From the NCBI GenBank assembly GCA_000004695.1, contig CM000151.3, positions 384,001 to 448,000 on the forward strand: a DNA stretch of 64,000 bases, read 5' to 3'. The position numbers and the translations under genes are program-made. The notes under the pieces are model-generated. The model was given only the letters and a program-made list of their open reading frames with translations. It did not search any database and was not told the origin of the DNA. Source of the stretch: Dictyostelium discoideum (Eukaryota). Every line of letters begins with the position of its first letter. Within the stretch, counting starts at the first letter, position 1. This document shows positions 2,515-38,621 of the stretch, in pieces.

Positions 2515-2782
2515 TGTAATAAAGCTTGTTAGCTTTATAAATATATATAATTAATAATTATATAATTGAATAATACTTTGTTATCTTTATTTAATATTAA
2601 TTTATATTTATAATATTCAATATTGTTTATAAAATTATTCTTTAGTATTTATATTATTTATAATGAGTTGACAGTATTATTATTATTATTATTATTATAT
2701 TATTTAAATGTGTGTCAACTATAATTAGTAATGTAATATGCATATTTAATATCTATTAATTTTATAGAGTAACTTTATTACA
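2515..2782 (-). repeat. 3' LTR (268 bp) with terminal inverted repeat TGTAATAAAG...CTTTATTACA
   Basis: Near-identical to 4887-5154. It starts TG and ends CA, with the PPT adjacent on the minus strand. Confidence 0.85.
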
Positions 2783-3379
2783 TATCCCCCCCTTTTAGTT
2801 GAAAAAAATTTTTCAATCTTTTAATATAAAACACATCATGATTTTTAATATTATCCAATACTAATTTGAATTTTAAATCGCTAACTCTCTCATGTACTTT
2901 GAAAAGACCTTCCCAAGATTTATTGAGCTTTACTGGACCAACAGTGGATTGTAAATAGACATAATCTCCTACTTGAATATTTGAACGAGAAACTTTTTTA
3001 TTAATTTGTGATAATTGGTCTTTACCAAGATTATCCTTAATGAGACAAGGACGTTTGAGGTTATTATTTACAATTTGGGCGAAATTATGAGCAAAATCTA
3101 ATCTTGATAAATTTGTACATGGATTTCTTATTAATGGTTGAATTGAGGTTATTTGTGATTTAATTATTGAATTCTCTGTTTGATTTAATGATATTGATTT
3201 TAATGGTAAATTTGATGTTATTGGTGAATCTATTGGTTCTTGGAATAAGAATTCTGGAATATCGTAATCTATTGGTAGTTGTTCTTCAATAGTTGGATAC
3301 GATTTGATTGATAGTATATGATGAGAATTAAAATTTTCAATTAAATGATCAGTATCTGTTAATAATTCTGATTTTGATG

Positions 3380-3410
<31 letters not shown>

Positions 3411-4705
3411 TGAATAATCAGATACTGTTTTAAATATAGTTTGTATACATGGTTGGGTTTCTTTAGATATTAATTTGGTACCAACATTGAATTCAAGATT
3501 CTTAATGATCATTTCTTTAAAATCAATGACTAAATTTAATCCAATTATTGTATCAATGCCAAATATACAATCAATTGATGTATCATTATCTTTAACAACA
3601 TTAACTTTAACTCTAGCGAATGCTTTACCTAATTTAATTGTTGTGTTACTTATTCCAATGATTTTGATTTCATTATTTGATGCTGATTTAACAGAATATT
3701 GTTTATTTTCAATCTTTAATTTTAACTTTTTAGCAATACTTTCCCAAACAATAGTAAGTGATGAACCAGTATCAATCAAACCTCTAACATTTTTATTATT
3801 TATTAATAAAGCTGCATTCATACTATCTATTCCAATTGAATTAATTGTACTATTATTAACCATTGTAATTGCATTAGTGCTATGATTATTATATGATTGT
3901 TTATTCTCATTATAATTATTCTTTTTATCTTTAGACCAACACTCTTGAATTACATGACCTTTCTTTTTGCAATATTTACAAAATTTTGTGATTGAATTTA
4001 CTTGATTTTGTGGTGCTTTATAAGGGGATGATTGTGGTGACATTTGTGGTGATCGATTATAATATTGATTTTTAAAAATTGGTGTTGAAATTTCTTCAGA
4101 TTCAATTGATTGTTGTTCGTTTTGAGATGTAACATATTGAGGGGATGTTGCAGAATAACCAGAACCCGAACCTAGATATCTTTGATTACCAAATTCTTGC
4201 AACGTCTTTGCAACTAATTGACCAGTGTACATTGATCTACCTTTGATACGAATTGAACCATCTTCACAAGACTTTGCAATATCTATTGCTCTTTTTAATG
4301 ATTTTGGTGCACATTTTGTAATTTCAATACCCAATTCAGTACCAACAGCTGAATAAAACAATTGTATTTTAAACTTTTCTGAAATATCAACTGCTGAACA
4401 TTTTGATAGAAATTTACCAATTAATATATCTAATGTATTGTATTTATATTCTCCCAACTTTGTTAATTCTGTTAAATCATCACTATCACCAATATCAAAA
4501 GCATCTTTAAGATCTTCAATTATCTCCATTGCTGTTAAGTCTGTATCCAATGTTGCGGCATATTCCAATGCATTGTTTCTTAGTTTTCTAATAATATCAG
4601 CTTTCGATATTTCCTCGCCATGAATTAGTAAGAGTAAGTGTTTGAATTTACGAAATGATAAACCTTTTCCATCACCCGAAAAAATTACGTTTTCATTATT
4701 ACTCA

Positions 4706-4706
<1 letters not shown>
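2778..4706 (-). CDS. Gag-Pro polyprotein of the LTR element: capsid-like region, CCHC zinc knuckle, retroviral-type aspartic protease
   Basis: Contains CKYCKKKGHVIQECWSKD (Cx2Cx4Hx4C) and LIDTGSSLTIVW (the D-T/S-G active site of retropepsin). The ORF end runs through the PPT into the LTR edge. This fits an internal deletion that fuses the truncated pol to the LTR. Confidence 0.75.
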
Positions 4707-4776
<70 letters not shown>

Positions 4777-4886
4777 TATTAAATTAAATTTAATCTAATG
4801 TAAAATTTTAATTGATTGAATAATTTGATAACTTTATATTTATAGTATATTTTTTTTTTTTTTTTTTGAAAGACGATGTCGCCAAA

Positions 4887-5154
4887 TGTAATAAAGCTTG
4901 TTAGCTTTATAAATATATATAATTAATAATTATATAATTGAATAATACTTTGTTATCTTTATTTAATATTAATTTATATTTATAATATTCAATATTGTTT
5001 ATAAAATTATTCTTTAGTATTTATATTATTTATAATGAGTTGACAGTATTATTATTATTATTATTATTATATTATTTAAATGTGTGTCAACTATAATTAG
5101 TAATGTAATATGCATATTTAATATCTATTAATTTTATAGAGTAACTTTATTACA
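4887..5154 (-). repeat. 5' LTR (268 bp) of the same element
   Basis: Direct repeat of 2515-2782. A putative PBS TTTGGCGACATCGTC lies immediately internal on the minus strand (plus 4870-4886). Confidence 0.85.
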
Positions 5155-5412
5155 CCGTAATAATTATTAAAAATAGTTTAAAAGAATCATCCAAGTTGGC
5201 ACTTTTTTGTAATTACAAAAATTATATATGGGGACTCATATAAAATAATATGAACAATTTTGAAAAGTGCACTTAGATAGTTTTTATAATAACTAAATTT
5301 TTTTTTTTTTTTTTTGAGATATTTCATTATTTCCGAAATAATTTTTAAAATAAATTTTTTTTTTTTTTTTTCTTTTTTAAAAAAAAAACAATGGATAGAG
5401 ATAAAAATTATA

Positions 5413-8448
<3,036 letters not shown>

Positions 8449-8645
8449 TAATAATAGTTACTGAAAAAAAAAAAAAAAAAAAAAAAAAATTTATCTTTTT
8501 ATTTAAATAGGCGAACAACAAATTAAAAATAAATTTATCATTGATGTAATAATAAATAAATAATTAAATGAATTAATAAATAAATTAATAAATTAATAAA
8601 TAAATAAATAAAATAATTGTGTTTCTCTTGTGGTTAGTTCTACTA

Positions 8646-8700
<55 letters not shown>

Positions 8701-9192
8701 TTAAAAAAGTTTAAAACCTAAAAAAAGTTGAGAGTATATAAATAAATAAATAAATAAAAAAATAAATAAAAAAATAAATAAATAAATAAAAAAAATAAAA
8801 AATAAATAAATAAAAAAATAAATAAAAAAATAAATAAAAATAAAAAATAAAAAGGATATTAACTTTTTTTATTTTAGAAAATTGACGACGTGAAACATTG
8901 TTGAAAAAAAAAAAAAAAAATGAAAATCTAATTTAAAAATTTTTATCAATAATTATTTGCATTTTCCCAACACTCTCAAAACAGGTTCTACAAATAAATC
9001 CTCATTCTTTCTCGTTTTTTATTAAAATTAATTTTTTTTTTTGAATTTAATTAAATTTTTTTGTTAATTTTTGCAACATTAAGGAAACCAACGTTTTTAA
9101 AAAAATTTTTCAAAAAAAAAAACTTGAAAAAATAAAAAAAAAATATTAAATAAAGCAAAAAATTTTTTTTTTAATCACCATTGTAAAAAACA

Positions 9193-12354
<3,162 letters not shown>

Positions 12355-12819
12355 CTAATTTTTAAATAAATTTAATAAATAATAATAAATAATTGTTTTT
12401 TAAAATTATGATAATTTATTATAAATTGATACAAAATAGAATAACCTTTGGCATTGTAATTTATTGGATAATAGTTTGAGTTCTATAGAATTGTAATATT
12501 TGTACTATTTGATTTACCAAATTGTTGAACTTATGACTTTGAAAATTTGATACTCAATATCCTCAGATATATAATCTGATTTTCTAGCTTTTAATCTTTT
12601 TCTTTATATTTTTTTAAATTTTTTTTTTTTTTTAAAATTTTTTTAGTTTTTGATTGATTATTATCATTATTAAATAATTTATATAAATTAAATATTAAAT
12701 GATTAATTTTTTTTTTTTTTTTTAACAAAACCTCGGAACTTAAGAAATTTGCCGAGTTTCACATATGACCCTTTTTTTTTTTTTTTTTTTTTGATTTTTT
12801 TTTTTGTCAATTTGTTTTT

Positions 12820-12850
<31 letters not shown>

Positions 12851-12913
12851 TTTTGATTTTTTTTTGATTTTTTTTTTTGTAGGAAATAAAGATTTTCTTA
12901 ATTTATTTCCAAA

Positions 12914-15967
<3,054 letters not shown>

Positions 15968-23452: not shown

Positions 23453-24254
23453 TTTATGTTTGATGATTGCGCAATCATTACTGAAAATAAAAAAAAAAAA
23501 AAAAAAAAAAAATAATTAATAAAAAAAAAAAATTAAAAAAAAAAAAATTGATTTGATATTTTTTTTTTTATTTTTTTTTTATTTTTTTAAATATACTCTT
23601 TCTTTTATATCAACCAAAAATTTAATTCAATTTTCTTAAAACTAATTCCATCGATATTAATATTTAATAAAAAAAAAAAAAATTTAAAAAATGAAAATAA
23701 TTCTTTTCGTTTATTTTTTCATTTTGTTCACAATAAATTATAAATTAATAATAATAATTATTATTTTTTTTTTTTTATTTTATTTTTTTTTTTTTTTTTT
23801 TTTTTAGAAACACACATATACTTGGTTAGATATTTTTTTTTTTTTTTAAAAAAAATTACTAGGGGTAATGATATATGAAAAAATAAAAAATGATTAAATA
23901 TTAATTTTGACCAATCAAAACAATAATTGCAATGATAAACTTTTAAATTTTAATTGGTTGGATGAAATCAATTTTTAAAGACGACCAACTCGTCAGTTTT
24001 TTTTTTTTTTTTTTTTTTTTTCATGAAATCTCGAGATATTAATTCTACAGTTCTTTGAATTCGCTAGAAGATATTATTTTTTTTCCTAAATACCTATCAT
24101 TTGCTTTCTTTTTCTTTTTCTTTTCTTTTTTTTATTTATTTTTATTTTTTTTTTTATTTTTATTTTTTATTTTAATTTTTTATTTACTTTAAAATAAAAA
24201 TTTTAAAATTATTTTTATATTTTTTATTCCTGTGTAGAAATTATAATTCTAAAA

Positions 24255-24520
24255 ATGTATTATAAAATTTTACTTATATTTGCATTATTAATTTTTGTTA
24301 ATATTAATTTTGCTTCTTCTGAATTTAAAAAAAATGGTAATAATTATTTGAAACAATTAAAATATTAAATATATAAACGATTTGCTTTACTGATATTATT
24401 TTTATTTTAAATTTTTTTTTTTTTTTTTTCTTAAAATTAGAAACTGAATCTGCGACTTTAAAATCATTATATGCTAGTTATTTAATGCAAAATAACAATA
24501 ATACTAATTATAATAATACC

Positions 24521-24578
<58 letters not shown>

Positions 24579-24738
24579 GTAATAATACTAATATTTATAA
24601 TGATTCAGTAACAAAGAATAAATGTAAAAATAAGAATGAATTGACAGTTGGTATAATTGGTGGTGGTATTGCAGGTCTTTATGCTGGTATGTAATTTATT
24701 AATGATTATTATAAAATAATTTTTTGAAGGTATTAACC

Positions 24739-24770
<32 letters not shown>

Positions 24771-26625
24771 GTATGATTTTCGATGATTTAGGTATTGATT
24801 ATACAATCTTAGAAGCCAATAAGGAAAGAGTTGGTGGAAGAGTTTATACTCATAAATTTGATGATCATAAATATTCATATACTGATCTCGGTGCTATGCG
24901 TATTCCATTAACGCCATTAATGGATAGAATTGTATCAAACCAAAATTATTCATTATTTAGTAAATTGGCAAAAGGTGGATATCAAATTCCAACTGTACCA
25001 TTTTTAATGAGTGTTAATAATGAAATTAGTTATTATAATGGTATTAGAGTTTTAAAAGGTTCCCCAGTTTTAAATCCATCCGATCCATTTAATTATAGTG
25101 ATTCAAATAATGGTGGTCCAGGAAAAGGTATTCCAGACGAGTATGCAAATCGTACAGTTGACTCTTTAATTCTCCCAGTATTTTATCAATTCATTTACAA
25201 TTTAACAGTTGATTTTGATAATGGTTTTAAACAAATGTTAAAATATGATAGCTATTCTGCAAGAGATTATTTAAAAACATTCCATAATTATCCAAATTCA
25301 GTTGTGAGTATTTAAAAAAAAAAATTAAATTTATTAAAATATATAAATATTAAATTATATTATTTTTTTTATTTATTATTAGATTGATTATATTGAAAAT
25401 TTATCAACAAATACTGGAAGATTAGATCAATCATCTATTACTGAATTATTAATGAGTGTTTTTGATTTTAGTGGAGAAAAATTCGTTTGTGTTGAAGGTG
25501 GTACAGGTCTTATTGTTAAATCAATGAGTCAAATTATAAAGAAAAAAGTTGAAATGGGTAGTTTTGTTACTAAAATTTCAAAATCATATGATAAAAAGAA
25601 TAATGAAATCGATGGATTAAATGTTGAAGTAGTAAGAGATTCAAACTTTGGTGGTAGTGATACTGAAATATTGAAATTTAAACATGTAATTAGTACTACA
25701 ACTTTACCAGCATTACAAAGAATTGATACAAGTGATTTGAAATTACCATTGAAATTAAAGGTTGCAATTCGTTCACTTAAATACACTGGTGCTATTAAAC
25801 TTGCAATTAACTTTAAATATCGTTGGTGGGAAGATAGTGAATTTATGAGTGGTAAACCAATTAGAGGTGGTTCTTCAAATACCGATCTTTTACTTCGTCA
25901 AGTTGTTTATCCATCATATGGTATCAATAATGGTACAAAAGGTGTTAGCGGAGTTTTATTAGCAAGTTATAGTGGTGGTTTGGAATCAATCAGAGTAAGT
26001 TGTGAATAACATTATTATGTTTAAAATAATTAATATTAATTTTTCTTAAATTTTATAGATTAGTAGTATGATTGGTAAAAAAGATAAAGAAAGAAAACTT
26101 TTAAATATAGTTTTAAGAGATCTTGCTGAAATCCATAATGTTGATTTAAAGAAATTAAAAAATTTATATAAAGATCATTTCTTCCAAAGTTGGGATAATG
26201 ATGAATTTGTAAGTATTAAATTTTAATAAATATTTATTTTATTTTTGAAAATATTAATAAATTTTAATTTTATTTTAAAAAAAAAAAACAAATATTAGTC
26301 ATCAGGTGCTTTTGCATTATTTTCAATATCTCAATATACTGAACTTTTCCCAAGTACTGGACAATCACATGTTGATGGTAGATTCCATTTATCAGGTGAA
26401 TTAACCTCGGTTCATCATGCATGGATGATTGGTGGACTTAATAGTGCATATAGATCAGTTGATTTAATTTTAAAGAATGAAGGATTTGAAGATTTACGTA
26501 TCAAATTAAGAAATAATTGGGGCACTATTGAGCAAGCTGAATATCCATCATTAGATTGGTATAAATACGACTCTGATATTAATCATTATAATATTCAAGG
26601 AAAATCAATTGAAAAATTATATTAA
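24255..26625 (+). CDS. Secreted flavin-containing amine oxidase / L-amino-acid-oxidase-like protein, copy 1; 6 exons
   Basis: Exons are 24255-24336, 24441-24686, 24771-25303, 25383-25994, 26059-26208 and 26299-26625. Donors are GTAATA, GTATGT, GTGAGT, GTAAGT, GTAAGT and every acceptor is AG, with consistent phases. The signal peptide is MYYKILLIFALLIFVNINFASS. Exon 2 carries a poly-Asn run. The FAD fingerprint TVGIIGGGIAGLYAG spliced onto MIFDDLGIDYTILEANKERVGGRVYT matches the LAAO/MAO GxGxxG...E..x..GGR dinucleotide-binding motif. The C-terminal GRFHLSGELTSVHHAWMIGGLNSAYRSV matches the amine-oxidase C-terminal FAD contact. Confidence 0.7.
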
Positions 26626-26750
26626 ATAAATCAAAAAATTACCTATATATTGCTAGTTTATTTTCATTCTCATTTTAAGTTTATTTTATTTATTTATTTA
26701 TTTTTATTAGAGGAATTCCTCTTTTCTTCTTAGAAATTAATTAAATTTGG

Positions 26751-27680: not shown

Positions 27681-27929
27681 CTACGGTCATCACTTAAATA
27701 TATGTGTACATTTATTTCTTAAAATAATTATTTTATTAAATAATTTATTTTAAAAGGATGTCAACTAATAATAATAATAACAACAATAATAATAATGAAG
27801 ATATTGATAATGATGAATCTCAACAACAGGATAATGAGGAACAACAACTTCAACAACCACAGGTATCAACATTCAATGAACAGCAATGTCAAATAAGGGA
27901 ACAGCAGGAAAAACTAACACTGATGACAC

Positions 27930-28390
27930 TGACCACCAGTTGTTACAAATTGAAATTCGTTCGTAATGTAATTCATCATTATTATTTGAAGAGGTACTAT
28001 ATTCAATGGATATATTCATTGGTAGTGGTGGTGGTCGATGTTGTTTATTATATGAATAAAAAATAAAATCGCTATAAGTTAAATGTAAATACTTAATTGA
28101 TTTATTATTTAATAAATTTGAAAATGAATTAATATTAAATAAACCATGGCAGTCTAATTTTGTTATTTCAATTGATGTATTTAATTATGAAAATAATGGT
28201 TTAAAATAATTTGAAAACATTTCTTTACTTTGATTTATGGTCTTAATTTAATTTTTATTTTTTTTCATCATCACAGTAATCATCCGAACCATATGCACTA
28301 TCACTATGTTGTCTATAATAATGATTGTTAATCAAATCTTCTATTCTAATGTTATATTTAAAATTTTTAAAGATTTACTTGAAATTAATG
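27930..28390 (-). pseudogene. Second decayed fragment of the F-box-like gene (homologous to 32310-32770)
   Basis: High nucleotide similarity between 27930-28070 and 32310-32440, and between 28080-28390 and 32440-32770, with indels and stops. Confidence 0.6.
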
Positions 28391-28407: not shown

Positions 28408-28438
<31 letters not shown>

Positions 28439-28710
28439 TTTTTTTTTTTTTAAATAAACTTTTTTTATATCAAATTTAATAATTTAATTCAAATTTTCTT
28501 AAAACTAATACCAATTTTAATATTTATAAAAAAAAAAAAAAAAAAAACTAAAAAAAAAGAAAATTCTTTTCATTTATTAAAAATTTTTTATTTTGTTCAC
28601 AAGAAATTAATAATTATTTATATTATTTTATTTTTTTATTTTTTTATTTTTTTTTTTTAGAAACACACATATGCTTGATTAGATTTTTTTTTAAAATTAC
28701 TAGGGGTAAT

Positions 28711-29118
28711 TGTTGAACATTAACACAATAATTTAAATAAATGATTTATTAGTTTAAAATACTCATGTTTTATCAGAATCTTGTAATAGAAAAATAAAAT
28801 TAAATTAAATAAATAAATATATAAATAAAAATAAAGTAATAAGTTGATGTTATCGACAATATCTATAATTTATTATGAATGTTTTTTTATAGTTGAAAAT
28901 TTTTACTTTTTATATTTGAGATTTAAAAATATTTTTATGAGTTTTTCAATCCACATTAAAAACTCACCACGTCGCTTTTTCCCACCTAGGTGAGAAAAGT
29001 CTAATTATATAAACATAAATTATTTTAGTTTGCGAGCGAGATTGTATTCTAATTTAATATCTTGATAAAACATAATTTTATTGTAACAATTTAATTATTA
29101 CATAATTATATTACAACA
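28711..29118. mobile_element. Solo LTR (408 bp) inserted in the promoter region of LAAO copy 2, with a 6-bp target-site duplication GGTAAT
   Basis: Copy 1 reads actaggGGTAATgatat at the homologous point. Copy 2 reads actaggGGTAAT[TGTTGAAC...ATTACAACA]GGTAATgatatg. The insertion starts TG and ends CA, with inverted termini TGTTG/CAACA. Its size is compatible with Dictyostelium Skipper-type LTRs, but family assignment is not verifiable here. Confidence 0.55.
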
Positions 29119-29394
29119 GGTAATGATATGAAAAAATGACCACTCGAAACGATAAATTAAATGGTTGGATGAAATCAATTTTAAAAGACGACCAACTTGT
29201 CAGTTTTTTTTTTTTTAATATTATGAAATCTCCAGATATTATTTCTACAGTTCTTTGAATTAATTAGAAGATTTTTTTTTTTCTATCATTTGATTCTTTT
29301 TCTTTTCTTTTTTTTATTTATTATTATTTTACTTTAAAAATTTTAAAATTATTTTTATATTTTTTATTCCTGTATAGGAATTATTATTCTAAAA

Positions 29395-31679
29395 ATGTAT
29401 AAAAAAATTTTACTTATATTTGCATTATTTATTTTAGTTAATATTAATTTTGCTTCTTCTGAATTTAAAAAAAATGGTATTAAATATTTGAAACAATAAA
29501 AATATTATATATAAAACGATTCAATTTACTGATATTATTTTTATTTTAAATTTTTTTTTTTTTAAAAATTAGAAACTGAATCTGCAAATTTAAAATCGTT
29601 ATATGCTAGTTATTTAATGAAAAATAACAATAATACTAAATATAATAATAATGATAATAGTAATAATACTAATATTTATAATGATTCAGTAACAAAGAAT
29701 AAAAGTAAAAATAAGAATGAATTGACAGTTGGTATCATTGGTGGTGGTATTGCAGGTCTATATGCTGGTATGTTATTTATTAAAAGTATGATTATTATAA
29801 AATTATTTTTTGAAGGTGTTGACTTTTTTTTTTTTTTTTTTTTTTAAATCAAGGTATGATTTTCGATGATTTAGGTATTGATTATACAATCTTAGAAGCC
29901 AATAAGGAAAGAGTTGGTGGAAGAGTTTATACTCATAAATTTGATGATCATAAATATTCATATACTGATCTCGGTGCTATGCGTATTCCATTAACGCCAT
30001 TAATGGATAGAATTGTATCAAACCAAAATTATTCATTATTTAGTAAATTGGCAAAAGGTGGATATCAAATTCCAACTGTACCATTTTTAATTAGTGTTAA
30101 TAATGAAATTAGTTATTATAATGGTATTAGAGTTTTAAAAGGTTCCCCAGTTTTAAATCCATCCGATCCATTTAATTATAGTGATTCAAATAATGGTGGT
30201 CCAGGAAAAGGTATTCCAGACGAGTATGCAAATCGTACAGTTGATTCTTTAATTCTCCCAGTATTTTATCAATTCATTAACAATTTAACAGTTGATTTTT
30301 ATAATGGTTTTAAACAAATGTTAAAATATGATAGCTATTCTGCAAGAGATTATTTAAAAACATTCCATAATTATCCAAATTCAGTTGTGAGTATTTAAAA
30401 AAAATTTAATTTAAAAAAATATATTTATATTAATATTTTTTATTATTAGATTGAATATATTGAAAATTTATCAACAATTAGTGGAAGATTAGATCAAACA
30501 TCTATCACTGAATTATTAATGAGTGTTTTTGATTTTAGTGGAGAAAAATTCGTTTGTGTTGAAGGTGGTACAGGTCTTATTGTTAAATCAATGAGTCAAA
30601 TTATAAAGAAAAAAGTTGAAATGGGTAGTTTTGTTACTAAAATTTCAAAATCATTTGATAAAAAGAATAATGAAATCGATGGATTAAATGTTGAAGTAGT
30701 AAGAGATTCAAACTTTGGTGGTAGTGATACTGAAATATTGAAATTTAAACATGTAATTAGTACTACAACTTTACCAGCATTACAAAGAATTGATACAAGT
30801 GATTTGAAATTACCATTGAAATTAAAGGTTGCAATTCGTTCACTCAAATACACTGGTGCTATTAAACTTGCAATTAACTTTAAATATCGTTGGTGGGAAG
30901 ATAGTGAATTTATGAGTGGTAAACCAATTAGAGGTGGTTCTTCAAATACCGATCTTTTACTTCGTCAAGTTGTTTATCCATCATATGGTATCAATAATGG
31001 TACAAAAGGTGTCAGCGGAGTTTTATTAGCAAGTTATAGTGGTGGTTTGGAATCAATCAGAGTAAGTTGTAAATAACATTGATTAAGTTTAAAATAATTT
31101 AATATTAATCAAATTAATTTTTCTTAAATTTTATAGATTAGTAGTATGATTGGTAAAAAAGATAAAGAAAGAAAACTTTTAAATATAGTTTTAAGAGATC
31201 TTGCTGAAATCCATAATGTTGATTTAAAGAAATTAAAAAATTTATATAAAGATCATTTCTTCCAAAGTTGGGATAATGATGAATTTGTAAGTATTAAATT
31301 TTAATAAATATTTATTTTATTTTTGAAAATATTAATAAATTTTATTTTTATTTTAAAAAAAAAAAACAAATATTAGTCATCAGGTGCTTTTGCATTATTT
31401 TCAACATCTCAATATACTGAACTTTTCCCAAGTACTGGACAATCACATGTTGATGGTAGATTCCATTTATCAGGTGAATTAACCTCGGTTCATCATGCAT
31501 GGATGATTGGTGGACTTAATAGTGCATATAGATCAGTTGATTTAATTTTAAAGAATGAAGGATTTGAAGATTTACGTATCAAATTAAGAAATAATTGGGG
31601 TACTATTGAACAAGCTGAATATCCATCATTAGATTGGTATAAATACGACTCTGATATTAATCATTATAAATTATATTAA
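29395..31679 (+). CDS. Secreted flavin amine oxidase / LAAO-like protein, copy 2 (tandem duplicate); 6 exons
   Basis: Exons are 29395-29476, 29573-29767, 29854-30386, 30450-31061, 31137-31286 and 31377-31679. Intron positions are identical to copy 1 and coding identity is near-complete. Differences: a shorter poly-Asn tract in exon 2, a 24-nt in-frame deletion at the C-terminus (...INHYKLY* versus ...INHYNIQGKSIEKLY*), and a few substitutions such as M>I and Y>F. Confidence 0.7.
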
Positions 31680-31977
31680 ATAAATCAAAAAATTACCTAT
31701 ATATTGCTCGTATATTTTAAGTTTATTTTATTTATTTATTTATTAAAGGAATTTTATTTTTCTTTTCTTCATAGCAATTAAATAAATTTATTAAAACTAC
31801 AAAAGTTATATAGAAAATAAAAAAATAAAAGTAAAAAAAAAGAGGCGACAAACCCAGCGCCGCATAAAATTACTTTTCACCACTTTAATGCTGAAATTTT
31901 TACATCCATGTGTTTTTTTTTTTTTTTTATTATCGAAGAAATTTATTTATAGTAATAAAATAAATTCGGATTATTAT

Positions 31978-38227: not shown

Positions 38228-38621
38228 AAAATAAATAATTAAATAAATTTTTCAATTTTCTATTGAAAAAAAAAAATGTTTATATCTTTTTGTTGAAAAT
38301 CAAAATTAAATAAAAAATTAAAAAATTAAAAAAATCTGAGGTGGGTGATACAACCACTCTTGTCACATCACACCAACACCCTTTAAAAAAAAAAAATAAA
38401 ATAAAAAAAAAAAATAAAAAAAAAAAAAAAAAAAACAAATTAAATTTTTATTAAAATTTAAACCACTAACACAATAACAATAACAACAACAAAAATAAAC
38501 CACTACCACAACAACAAAAAACAAAAAAACTTAAAAAACTAAAAAAATAAAAATTAAATTTTAATTACATGTAATTTAACTTTTTTAATTCAAAAAGATA
38601 TATATAAAAAAAAAAGATATA

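Follow-up and report, generated by a model that had tools for sequence, protein, structure and literature searches.

Introduction

The reference genome of Dictyostelium discoideum is compact and gene-dense, and it is the standard example of mobile elements that integrate into 'safe havens', namely the vicinity of tRNA genes and the centromeric clusters. Every LTR element described to date in the dictyostelids is of the Ty3/gypsy type, with published LTR lengths in D. discoideum of 390 bp for Skipper-1, 265 bp for DGLT-A and 208 bp (AX4 consensus) for Skipper-2, formerly DGLT-P (PMC5006619). Insertions of DGLT-A lie 13-33 bp upstream of tRNA genes and those of Skipper-2 8-23 bp downstream of them; Skipper-1 shows no preference for tRNA genes and is concentrated in centromeric clusters, and solo LTRs are common in the species, 10 having been reported for Skipper-1 and 5-11 for DGLT-A (PMC5006619). 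A 5′ end of the form TGTNR is shared by Gypsy-type LTRs and Ginger transposons, the latter including Tdd-4 and Tdd-5 (Ginger2) of D. discoideum, which have terminal inverted repeats (TIRs) of 260-297 bp and target-site duplications (TSDs) of 5 bp (PMC2836005).

The locus described here lies in a stretch of 64,000 nucleotides, referred to as the window, which contains a duplicated pair of amine-oxidase genes; a 408-bp block with LTR-like ends was found in the promoter of one of the pair. The original prediction, made from the window, had called this block a solo LTR and had named Skipper, DGLT-A and DGLT-P as families to which it might belong.

Comparator loci and searches

The gene downstream of the block is DDB_G0271476; the loci of those members of its 90% protein cluster that come from recently deposited strain assemblies served as comparators. 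Over 22.3 kb, L004 (locus-tag prefix ACTFIT) showed 6 substitutions and 39 homopolymer indel positions relative to the window. It is most probably the laboratory strain AX2-214, as judged by elimination against a published strain table (PMC12745789); it was not treated as an independent population sample relative to AX4. L002 and L003 are wild D. discoideum isolates that were only 92-95% identical at the locus, and L009, a strain designated 'D. cf. discoideum', may according to the same paper represent a cryptic species (PMC12745789). The locus of D. firmibasis (L001) was not syntenic and its promoter aligned only proximally, so that it was set aside as uninformative for the insertion site. 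The promoter alignment comprised seven promoter copies, taken from the window and the strain loci.

Reference LTRs were recovered from the window and the strain assemblies, starting with the Gag-PR ORF of the DGLT-A element in the window, which led to a full-length polyprotein. The RT-IN core of this DGLT-A polyprotein led to a transposon cluster in the wild isolate L005, which contained a chromodomain element of the Skipper type (RT-RNaseH at 3771-5597, IN-SH3-Chromo at 5705-7144, polypurine tract AAAGAAGGAAGGGGAAGG, LTR start TGTTAGAGACTC). The Skipper integrase, used as query, gave Skipper-1 from the lineage of the window itself (L007), an insertion resembling Skipper (L006) and an intact-looking element (L008). 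The Skipper-1 LTRs tested were L005:7188-7549, L007:13706-14100 and L006:12100-12490, which represent three lineages. In a shuffle test that served as control, Skipper-1 LTRs of different lineages matched one another at 81-94%, with z = 107.

Structure of the inserted element

The element and its parts are located as follows (positions in the window; none of these features was assigned a strand):

28711-29118, inserted LTR-like element, 408 bp, 18.4% GC, from TGTTG to CAACA
28711-28715, 5′ terminus TGTTG, which matches TGTNR of Gypsy-type LTR and Ginger ends (PMC2836005)
29114-29118, 3′ terminus CAACA, reverse-complementary to TGTTG at every position
28705-28710, left TSD copy GGTAAT, present singly at empty sites
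29119-29124, right TSD copy GGTAAT, completing a 6-bp TSD
28951-29044, sole G+C-containing core of the element, with CCACATTAAAAACTCACCACGTCGCTTTTTCCCACCTAGGTGAGAAAAGTC, the inverted hexamers CTCACC/GGTGAG, then TATATAAAC as a TATA-like motif, and GTTTGCGAGCGAGATTG

The coordinates originally given for the 408-bp block, its TGTTG/CAACA ends and the GGTAAT repeated around it proved exact. The termini are complementary at 5/5 positions and thus form a short inverted repeat with TG...CA at its outer ends. GGTAAT stands on both flanks, which places the TSD within the 4-6 bp range; the bases beside the two copies differ, so the duplication measures exactly 6 bp. Per random segment of the window, the probability of finding a 6-bp flanking direct repeat was approximately 0.003, that of a 5-bp terminal inverted repeat approximately 0.006 and that of TG..CA ends approximately 0.003. 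The three features occurred jointly in 0 of 2,000,000 random segments drawn from this very A/T-rich window.

Within the 408 bp, no terminal inverted repeat longer than 5 bp was detected, the longer inverted matches being A/T-rich and 70-75% identical, which is chance level. Terminal direct repeats were likewise absent from the element, the only direct repeats being two A/T-rich internal pairs of 19-24 nt, and a TRIM was rejected on this ground. The 3′ end is CAACA, with no A-rich tail or poly(A), and no tRNA-like or other Rfam signal was found in the element; a SINE or other tRNA-derived retroposon was discarded for want of a tRNA or Rfam match and of an A-tail.

The longest ORF inside the element has 49 codons, and exact-product look-ups of its 48-aa and 49-aa ORFs among public assemblies returned no record. 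Both strands contain TATA-like and AATAAA motifs, which at 18% GC are uninformative for a U3-R-U5 layout or for orientation. The genuine Dictyostelium LTRs examined here also have an A/T-rich stretch and, with it, a small core that contains G+C, in a comparison that is qualitative only. The element sits in a euchromatic gene promoter, outside transposon clusters, and the nearest tRNA gene, at 2412-2486 and the only one in the window, is 26 kb away.

The empty site and the direction of the event

The insertion was compared with the corresponding site of the paralogue, for which the following features are needed:

29395-31676, + strand, amine-oxidase copy 2 (AX4 DDB_G0271476, chromosome 2), the gene downstream of the insertion
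24255-26595, + strand, amine-oxidase copy 1, the paralogue with the empty site
23864-23869, no strand assigned, empty target site in the copy-1 promoter, GGTAAT once, the pre-insertion state

The duplication on which the prediction had relied is real, 29157-31789 aligning with 23950-26748 at approximately 90% and 28426-28710 with 23563-23869 at 76%, and the block is present only in copy 2, as had been stated. In copy 1 the site context reads TTACTAGGGGTAATGATAT, with a single GGTAAT at 23864-23869. After removal of the element and of one GGTAAT, no gap remained when copy 2 was aligned with copy 1 and another five promoter copies; the difference between filled and empty site is exactly the element plus one GGTAAT.

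Empty sites were found in copy 1 of the window, in copy 1 of AX2, in copy 1 of L002, in L003 and in L009. The target occurs once in ...TTACTAGGGGTAAT..., which is exact in L002 copy 1 and L009 and carries one substitution in L003, and in L002 copy 2 a small deletion spans the insertion site. L002, L003 and L009 all lack the element, and no part of the 408 bp was present there. The AX2-type assembly, in turn, contains the element at the same site (L004:9317-9724) with 100% identity, and since this assembly was made independently, the element is not an assembly artefact. The empty site is ancestral, being shared by copy 1 of the window and of AX2, by two wild isolates and by a putative cryptic species, and the insertion took place after the duplication in the window's lineage. 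Both its polarity and its timing as originally proposed are thereby confirmed, and the insertion is specific to the laboratory-strain (NC4/AX) lineage.

A separate comparison of window 22.9-32.8 kb with L002, L003, L004 and L009 showed that the oxidase locus is structurally dynamic and has undergone independent duplications across lineages. AX4 and AX2 have the order oxidase-spacer-oxidase, and L002 the order GNAT-oxidase-GNAT-oxidase, in which the duplicated unit takes in the acetyltransferase; L003 and L009 carry a single oxidase copy at the locus.

The amine-oxidase genes and their promoters

Both duplicated genes carry the Pfam domain Amino_oxidase. Their nearest named relatives outside Dictyostelium are fungal proteins annotated as 'amine oxidase' or 'L-amino-acid oxidase', at approximately 30% identity, so that the designation 'LAAO' used in the prediction holds at the level of the family and not as a specific name. 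Three intron-free ORFs of the window were 100% identical to AX4 DDB_G0271470 (GNAT acetyltransferase), DDB_G0271478 and DDB_G0271456, and these identities place the window on AX4 chromosome 2. A literature search on the identifiers of the host genes returned no paper.

The ATG of copy 2 is at 29395, and the distance from the element to it was measured as 276 bp, for which the earlier figure of 280 bp was adequate. In the seven-copy alignment, two sets of conserved promoter blocks enclose the site:

28659-28684, + strand, conserved promoter block upstream of the insertion, AGAAACACACATATGCTTGATTAGAT, kept in 6/7 aligned copies
29137-29203, + strand, conserved blocks downstream of the insertion, TGACCA(A/C)TCGAAACGATAA and GGTTGGATGAAATCAATTTT.AAAGACGACCAACT, kept in 7/7 copies

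The seventh promoter extract, that of L009, begins inside the upstream block and is diverged there. Conserved non-coding sequence reads AGAAACA(C/T)ACATAT..GCTTGGTTAGAT approximately 25-50 bp upstream of the site and GACCAATCGAAACGATAA and GGTTGGATGAAATCAATTTTTAAAGACGACCAACT downstream of it, and the insertion site itself is the 3′ edge of a conserved ACTAGGGGTAAT motif. By the insertion, the upstream block has been shifted 414 bp further from the gene and from the proximal blocks, and expression of DDB_G0271476 may be altered relative to its paralogue.

Two further differences were noted in the copy-2 promoter. At 29125-29160 (versus 23870-23949 in copy 1), it lacks approximately 30 bp (…TAAAAAATGATTAAATATTAATTT…) that are found in all other promoter copies, and it also lacks a 22-bp segment common only to copy 1, AX2 copy 1 and L009. 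The spacer between the oxidase copies contains a 102-aa N/Q-rich ORF at 27758-28066 (+ strand), which is an annotated gene (111 aa) in the AX2-type assembly; it gave only weak, sub-threshold Pfam matches, and its status as a real gene is doubtful.

Search for a family and for further copies

The element was compared with every recovered LTR in both orientations, and z did not exceed 2, the sole exception being a local match to Skipper-1 at z of approximately 7. This match corresponds to an (AAATT)n/(AAATA)n low-complexity run, which also matches dozens of ordinary intergenic sites, and was rejected as homology. Against the DGLT-A LTR of the window (2515-2782), z was approximately 0, a variant DGLT-A LTR showed no homology, and against the Skipper-2/DGLT-P LTR (L008:11909-12287) z was approximately 1. 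The suggested assignment to Skipper, DGLT-A or DGLT-P is hence contradicted by the lack of homology to the recovered LTRs, and the published LTR lengths of these families (390, 265 and 208 bp) and their target preferences do not fit either.

A triple repeat of approximately 390 bp in L005, considered by its length as a Skipper LTR, was dismissed in view of a heat-shock-element-like palindrome and associated tyrosine-recombinase genes, which point to DIRS-1. No similarity was found between the element and the DIRS-like repeat L005:8875-9267. A DIRS-1 derivative was rejected on account of this result and of the TSD, DIRS-1 having inverted terminal repeats and no TSD. A 32-bp match at L008:2531-2562 proved to be an A/T-rich stretch of an intron and was dismissed as chance.

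BLASTN of the element against the 64-kb window gave A/T-rich low-complexity matches only and no second copy. In approximately 260 kb, consisting of the window and nine loci (approximately 200 kb fetched, including 88 kb of transposon clusters), neither a second copy nor a full-length parent was found. Two metagenome collections, a prokaryote-genome collection and a viral collection gave 0 pattern matches; Dictyostelium is not expected there. A literature search with the GC-containing words of the element, on both strands, produced no relevant paper.

Other mobile elements of the window and of the strain loci

An internally deleted DGLT-A is located at 2515-5154 of the window on the − strand and measures 2,640 bp versus 5,054 bp of the consensus. 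It has two 100%-identical 268-bp LTRs (TGTAATAAAG...CTTTATTACA) with TGTAA...TTACA ends, a CCGT TSD (4-5 bp), the primer-binding site TGGCGACATCG and a G-rich polypurine tract, and it is situated 28 bp upstream of the tRNA-Val(AAC) gene at 2412-2486. It lacks the RT-RNaseH-IN core, yet a 642-aa ORF is open, in which Gag-PR is fused to the C-terminus of the integrase (= AX4 DDB_G0271456). Near-identical ORFs were present at several further loci of AX4 and AX2, an indication that the deleted form itself was propagated.

Positions 1-2300 of the window (− strand) are occupied by a GC-richer (approximately 40%) non-LTR retrotransposon downstream of the same tRNA-Val gene, with ORFs at 1754-2116, 876-1772 and, running off the window edge, 1-954, the last with a weak match to an APE-type endonuclease. 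Position and layout fit a TRE3-type element; the tRNA-Val gene would then be flanked by DGLT-A upstream and by TRE3 downstream.

In the 'D. cf. discoideum' locus L006, a block of approximately 8.1 kb (5361-13504, corresponding to the window spacer 38262-38518) separates two large genes which lie next to each other in AX4. It holds a Skipper-like RT/RNaseH and LTR fragments of the Skipper-1 type and represents another euchromatic, non-tRNA, lineage-specific insertion of an LTR element, approximately 10 kb from the amine-oxidase locus. The wild-isolate locus L008 contains, at 6366-12287 and a few bp downstream of a tRNA gene, an intact-looking chromodomain LTR retrotransposon with two LTRs that are 96% identical and lengthened by (AAT)n, and with ORFs for Gag-PR-RT-RNaseH and IN-SH3-Chromo. 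This placement is the behaviour of Skipper-2/DGLT-P, a family whose copies in AX4 are all reported to be degenerate. At L005:9276-12100, likewise in a wild isolate, a Ty3/gypsy element 53% identical to the DGLT-A core (polypurine tract AGAGAGGGGG, LTR start TGTGATGATTC) was found approximately 30 bp upstream of a tRNA gene. Within D. discoideum sensu lato, this element would seem to form a second lineage of the DGLT-A type.

Origin of the 408-bp block

The 408-bp block is probably a solo LTR left behind by an integrase-mediated insertion. Within the NC4/AX lineage, an LTR retrotransposon would have entered the copy-2 promoter, its integrase making a 6-bp staggered cut at GGTAAT and so giving rise to the target duplication. 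Recombination between the two LTRs would later have deleted the internal region and left one LTR between intact copies of the TSD. The existence of a former full-length element at this site is inferred. Since a solo LTR contains neither a primer-binding site nor a polypurine tract, its identity as an LTR is read solely from the end signature. Of the original term 'solo LTR', the LTR-like end structure was borne out; the name as a whole was drawn from that signature only, and no family match was obtained for it.

The same end grammar is displayed by the DGLT-A of the window, which speaks for a solo LTR. Pointing the other way, the sampled DNA yielded neither a second copy nor a full-length parent, homology to the recovered LTRs is absent, a TSD of 6 bp exceeds the 4-5 bp seen in the two Ty3/gypsy elements with readable junctions, and the promoter site matches neither the tRNA-gene nor the centromeric-cluster targeting of D. 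discoideum LTR elements (PMC5006619). The parent would fall outside the LTR families catalogued for D. discoideum and would be extinct, very low-copy or undescribed.

Three other origins were weighed against a solo LTR. One is a non-autonomous, MITE-like DNA transposon, mobilized by a DDE/integrase-type transposase that also recognizes TG...CA ends and derived from Tdd-4/Tdd-5 (Ginger2) or from another integrase-related superfamily; it would suit an element that is short, non-coding and apparently single-copy in the sampled DNA, and a few DNA-transposon superfamilies do make 6-bp TSDs. Ginger/Tdd transposons have Gypsy-like TGTNR ends and are present in D. discoideum (PMC2836005), but the inverted terminus of the element is 5 bp only, with longer inverted matches at chance level, in a comparison with Tdd made by description only. 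The absence of long TIRs and of direct repeats, the 6-bp TSD and the lack of an A-tail or tRNA signal argue against a MITE of the Tdd-4/5 type as well as against a TRIM or a SINE. A MITE is accordingly regarded as unlikely, and with these three disfavoured a solo LTR is the simplest reading left.

The block might also be captured DNA, i.e., a 408-bp piece from elsewhere in the genome that was joined in where a double-strand break had left staggered ends; fill-in would account for the flanking repeat, and the TG...CA ends would be coincidental. No other copy or family in the sampled DNA and a structurally dynamic locus, with independent duplications in different lineages, would agree with this, but a joint end signature that was seen in 0 of 2,000,000 random segments, and the lack of a match in the rest of the window, make capture quite improbable. 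Finally, an ancestral 408 bp could have been deleted from copy 1 via the GGTAAT microhomologies, an alternative that had been named together with the prediction. One GGTAAT, just as observed in copy 1, would remain after such a deletion between short direct repeats. The same empty site, however, is present in five independent comparators, including the single-copy loci of a wild isolate and of a putative cryptic species that had split off before the duplication in the window, and none of these holds any part of the 408 bp, so that a deletion in copy 1 is effectively refuted.

A further proposal goes beyond the solo LTR itself and is offered tentatively, its truth being rather doubtful: the 408 bp could represent a family of LTR retrotransposons (or of integrase-type transposons) outside the curated D. 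discoideum catalogue, one that, once the NC4/AX lineage had separated from tropical isolates, was active in it, generated a 6-bp TSD and integrated into an ordinary gene promoter, not into the 'safe havens'. If true, one more entry would be added to a catalogue that is usually treated as complete, and the locus would provide a rare example of a promoter-disrupting insertion in the D. discoideum genome. The paralogues and strains with and without the insertion would constitute a natural experiment on expression. Should the element be assigned to a known repeat, it would merely be one more solo LTR. The insertion belongs to an ordinary class of events and is mildly interesting for its twist, namely an LTR-like relic outside the catalogued families and outside safe-haven targets.

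Comparison with known systems

Among the described elements, Skipper-1 resembles the inserted element in LTR length (390 versus 408 bp), in an LTR start with TGTT (Skipper-1 TGTTAGAG, element TGTTGAAC), in A/T-richness with an (AAATT)n-like run and in showing no preference for tRNA genes; it differs in that LTR homology is absent and that Skipper-1 is concentrated in centromeric clusters, whereas the element is in a gene promoter. DGLT-A ('H3R' elements) shares the formation of solo LTRs, TGT...ACA ends and short TSDs, but has a 265-bp LTR beside tRNA genes and a TSD of 4-5 bp, versus 6 bp for the element, whose nearest tRNA gene is 26 kb off. Skipper-2/DGLT-P is an LTR retrotransposon of the same genome with an LTR start TGT..., yet it is tRNA-targeted and has a 208-bp LTR, and the element has neither sequence similarity to it nor a tRNA gene nearby. 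Tdd-4/Tdd-5 have integrase-type TGTNR ends and short TSDs in common with the element; their long TIRs and 5-bp TSD contrast with its 5-bp inverted terminus and 6-bp TSD. Termini of the form TGTTG...CAACA are typical of several Ty1/copia elements, and some retroviral integrases make 6-bp TSDs. In both respects, as these groups are generally described, the element resembles Ty1/copia and retroviral elements, whereas the dictyostelid LTR retrotransposons described to date are all of the Ty3/gypsy type (PMC5006619).
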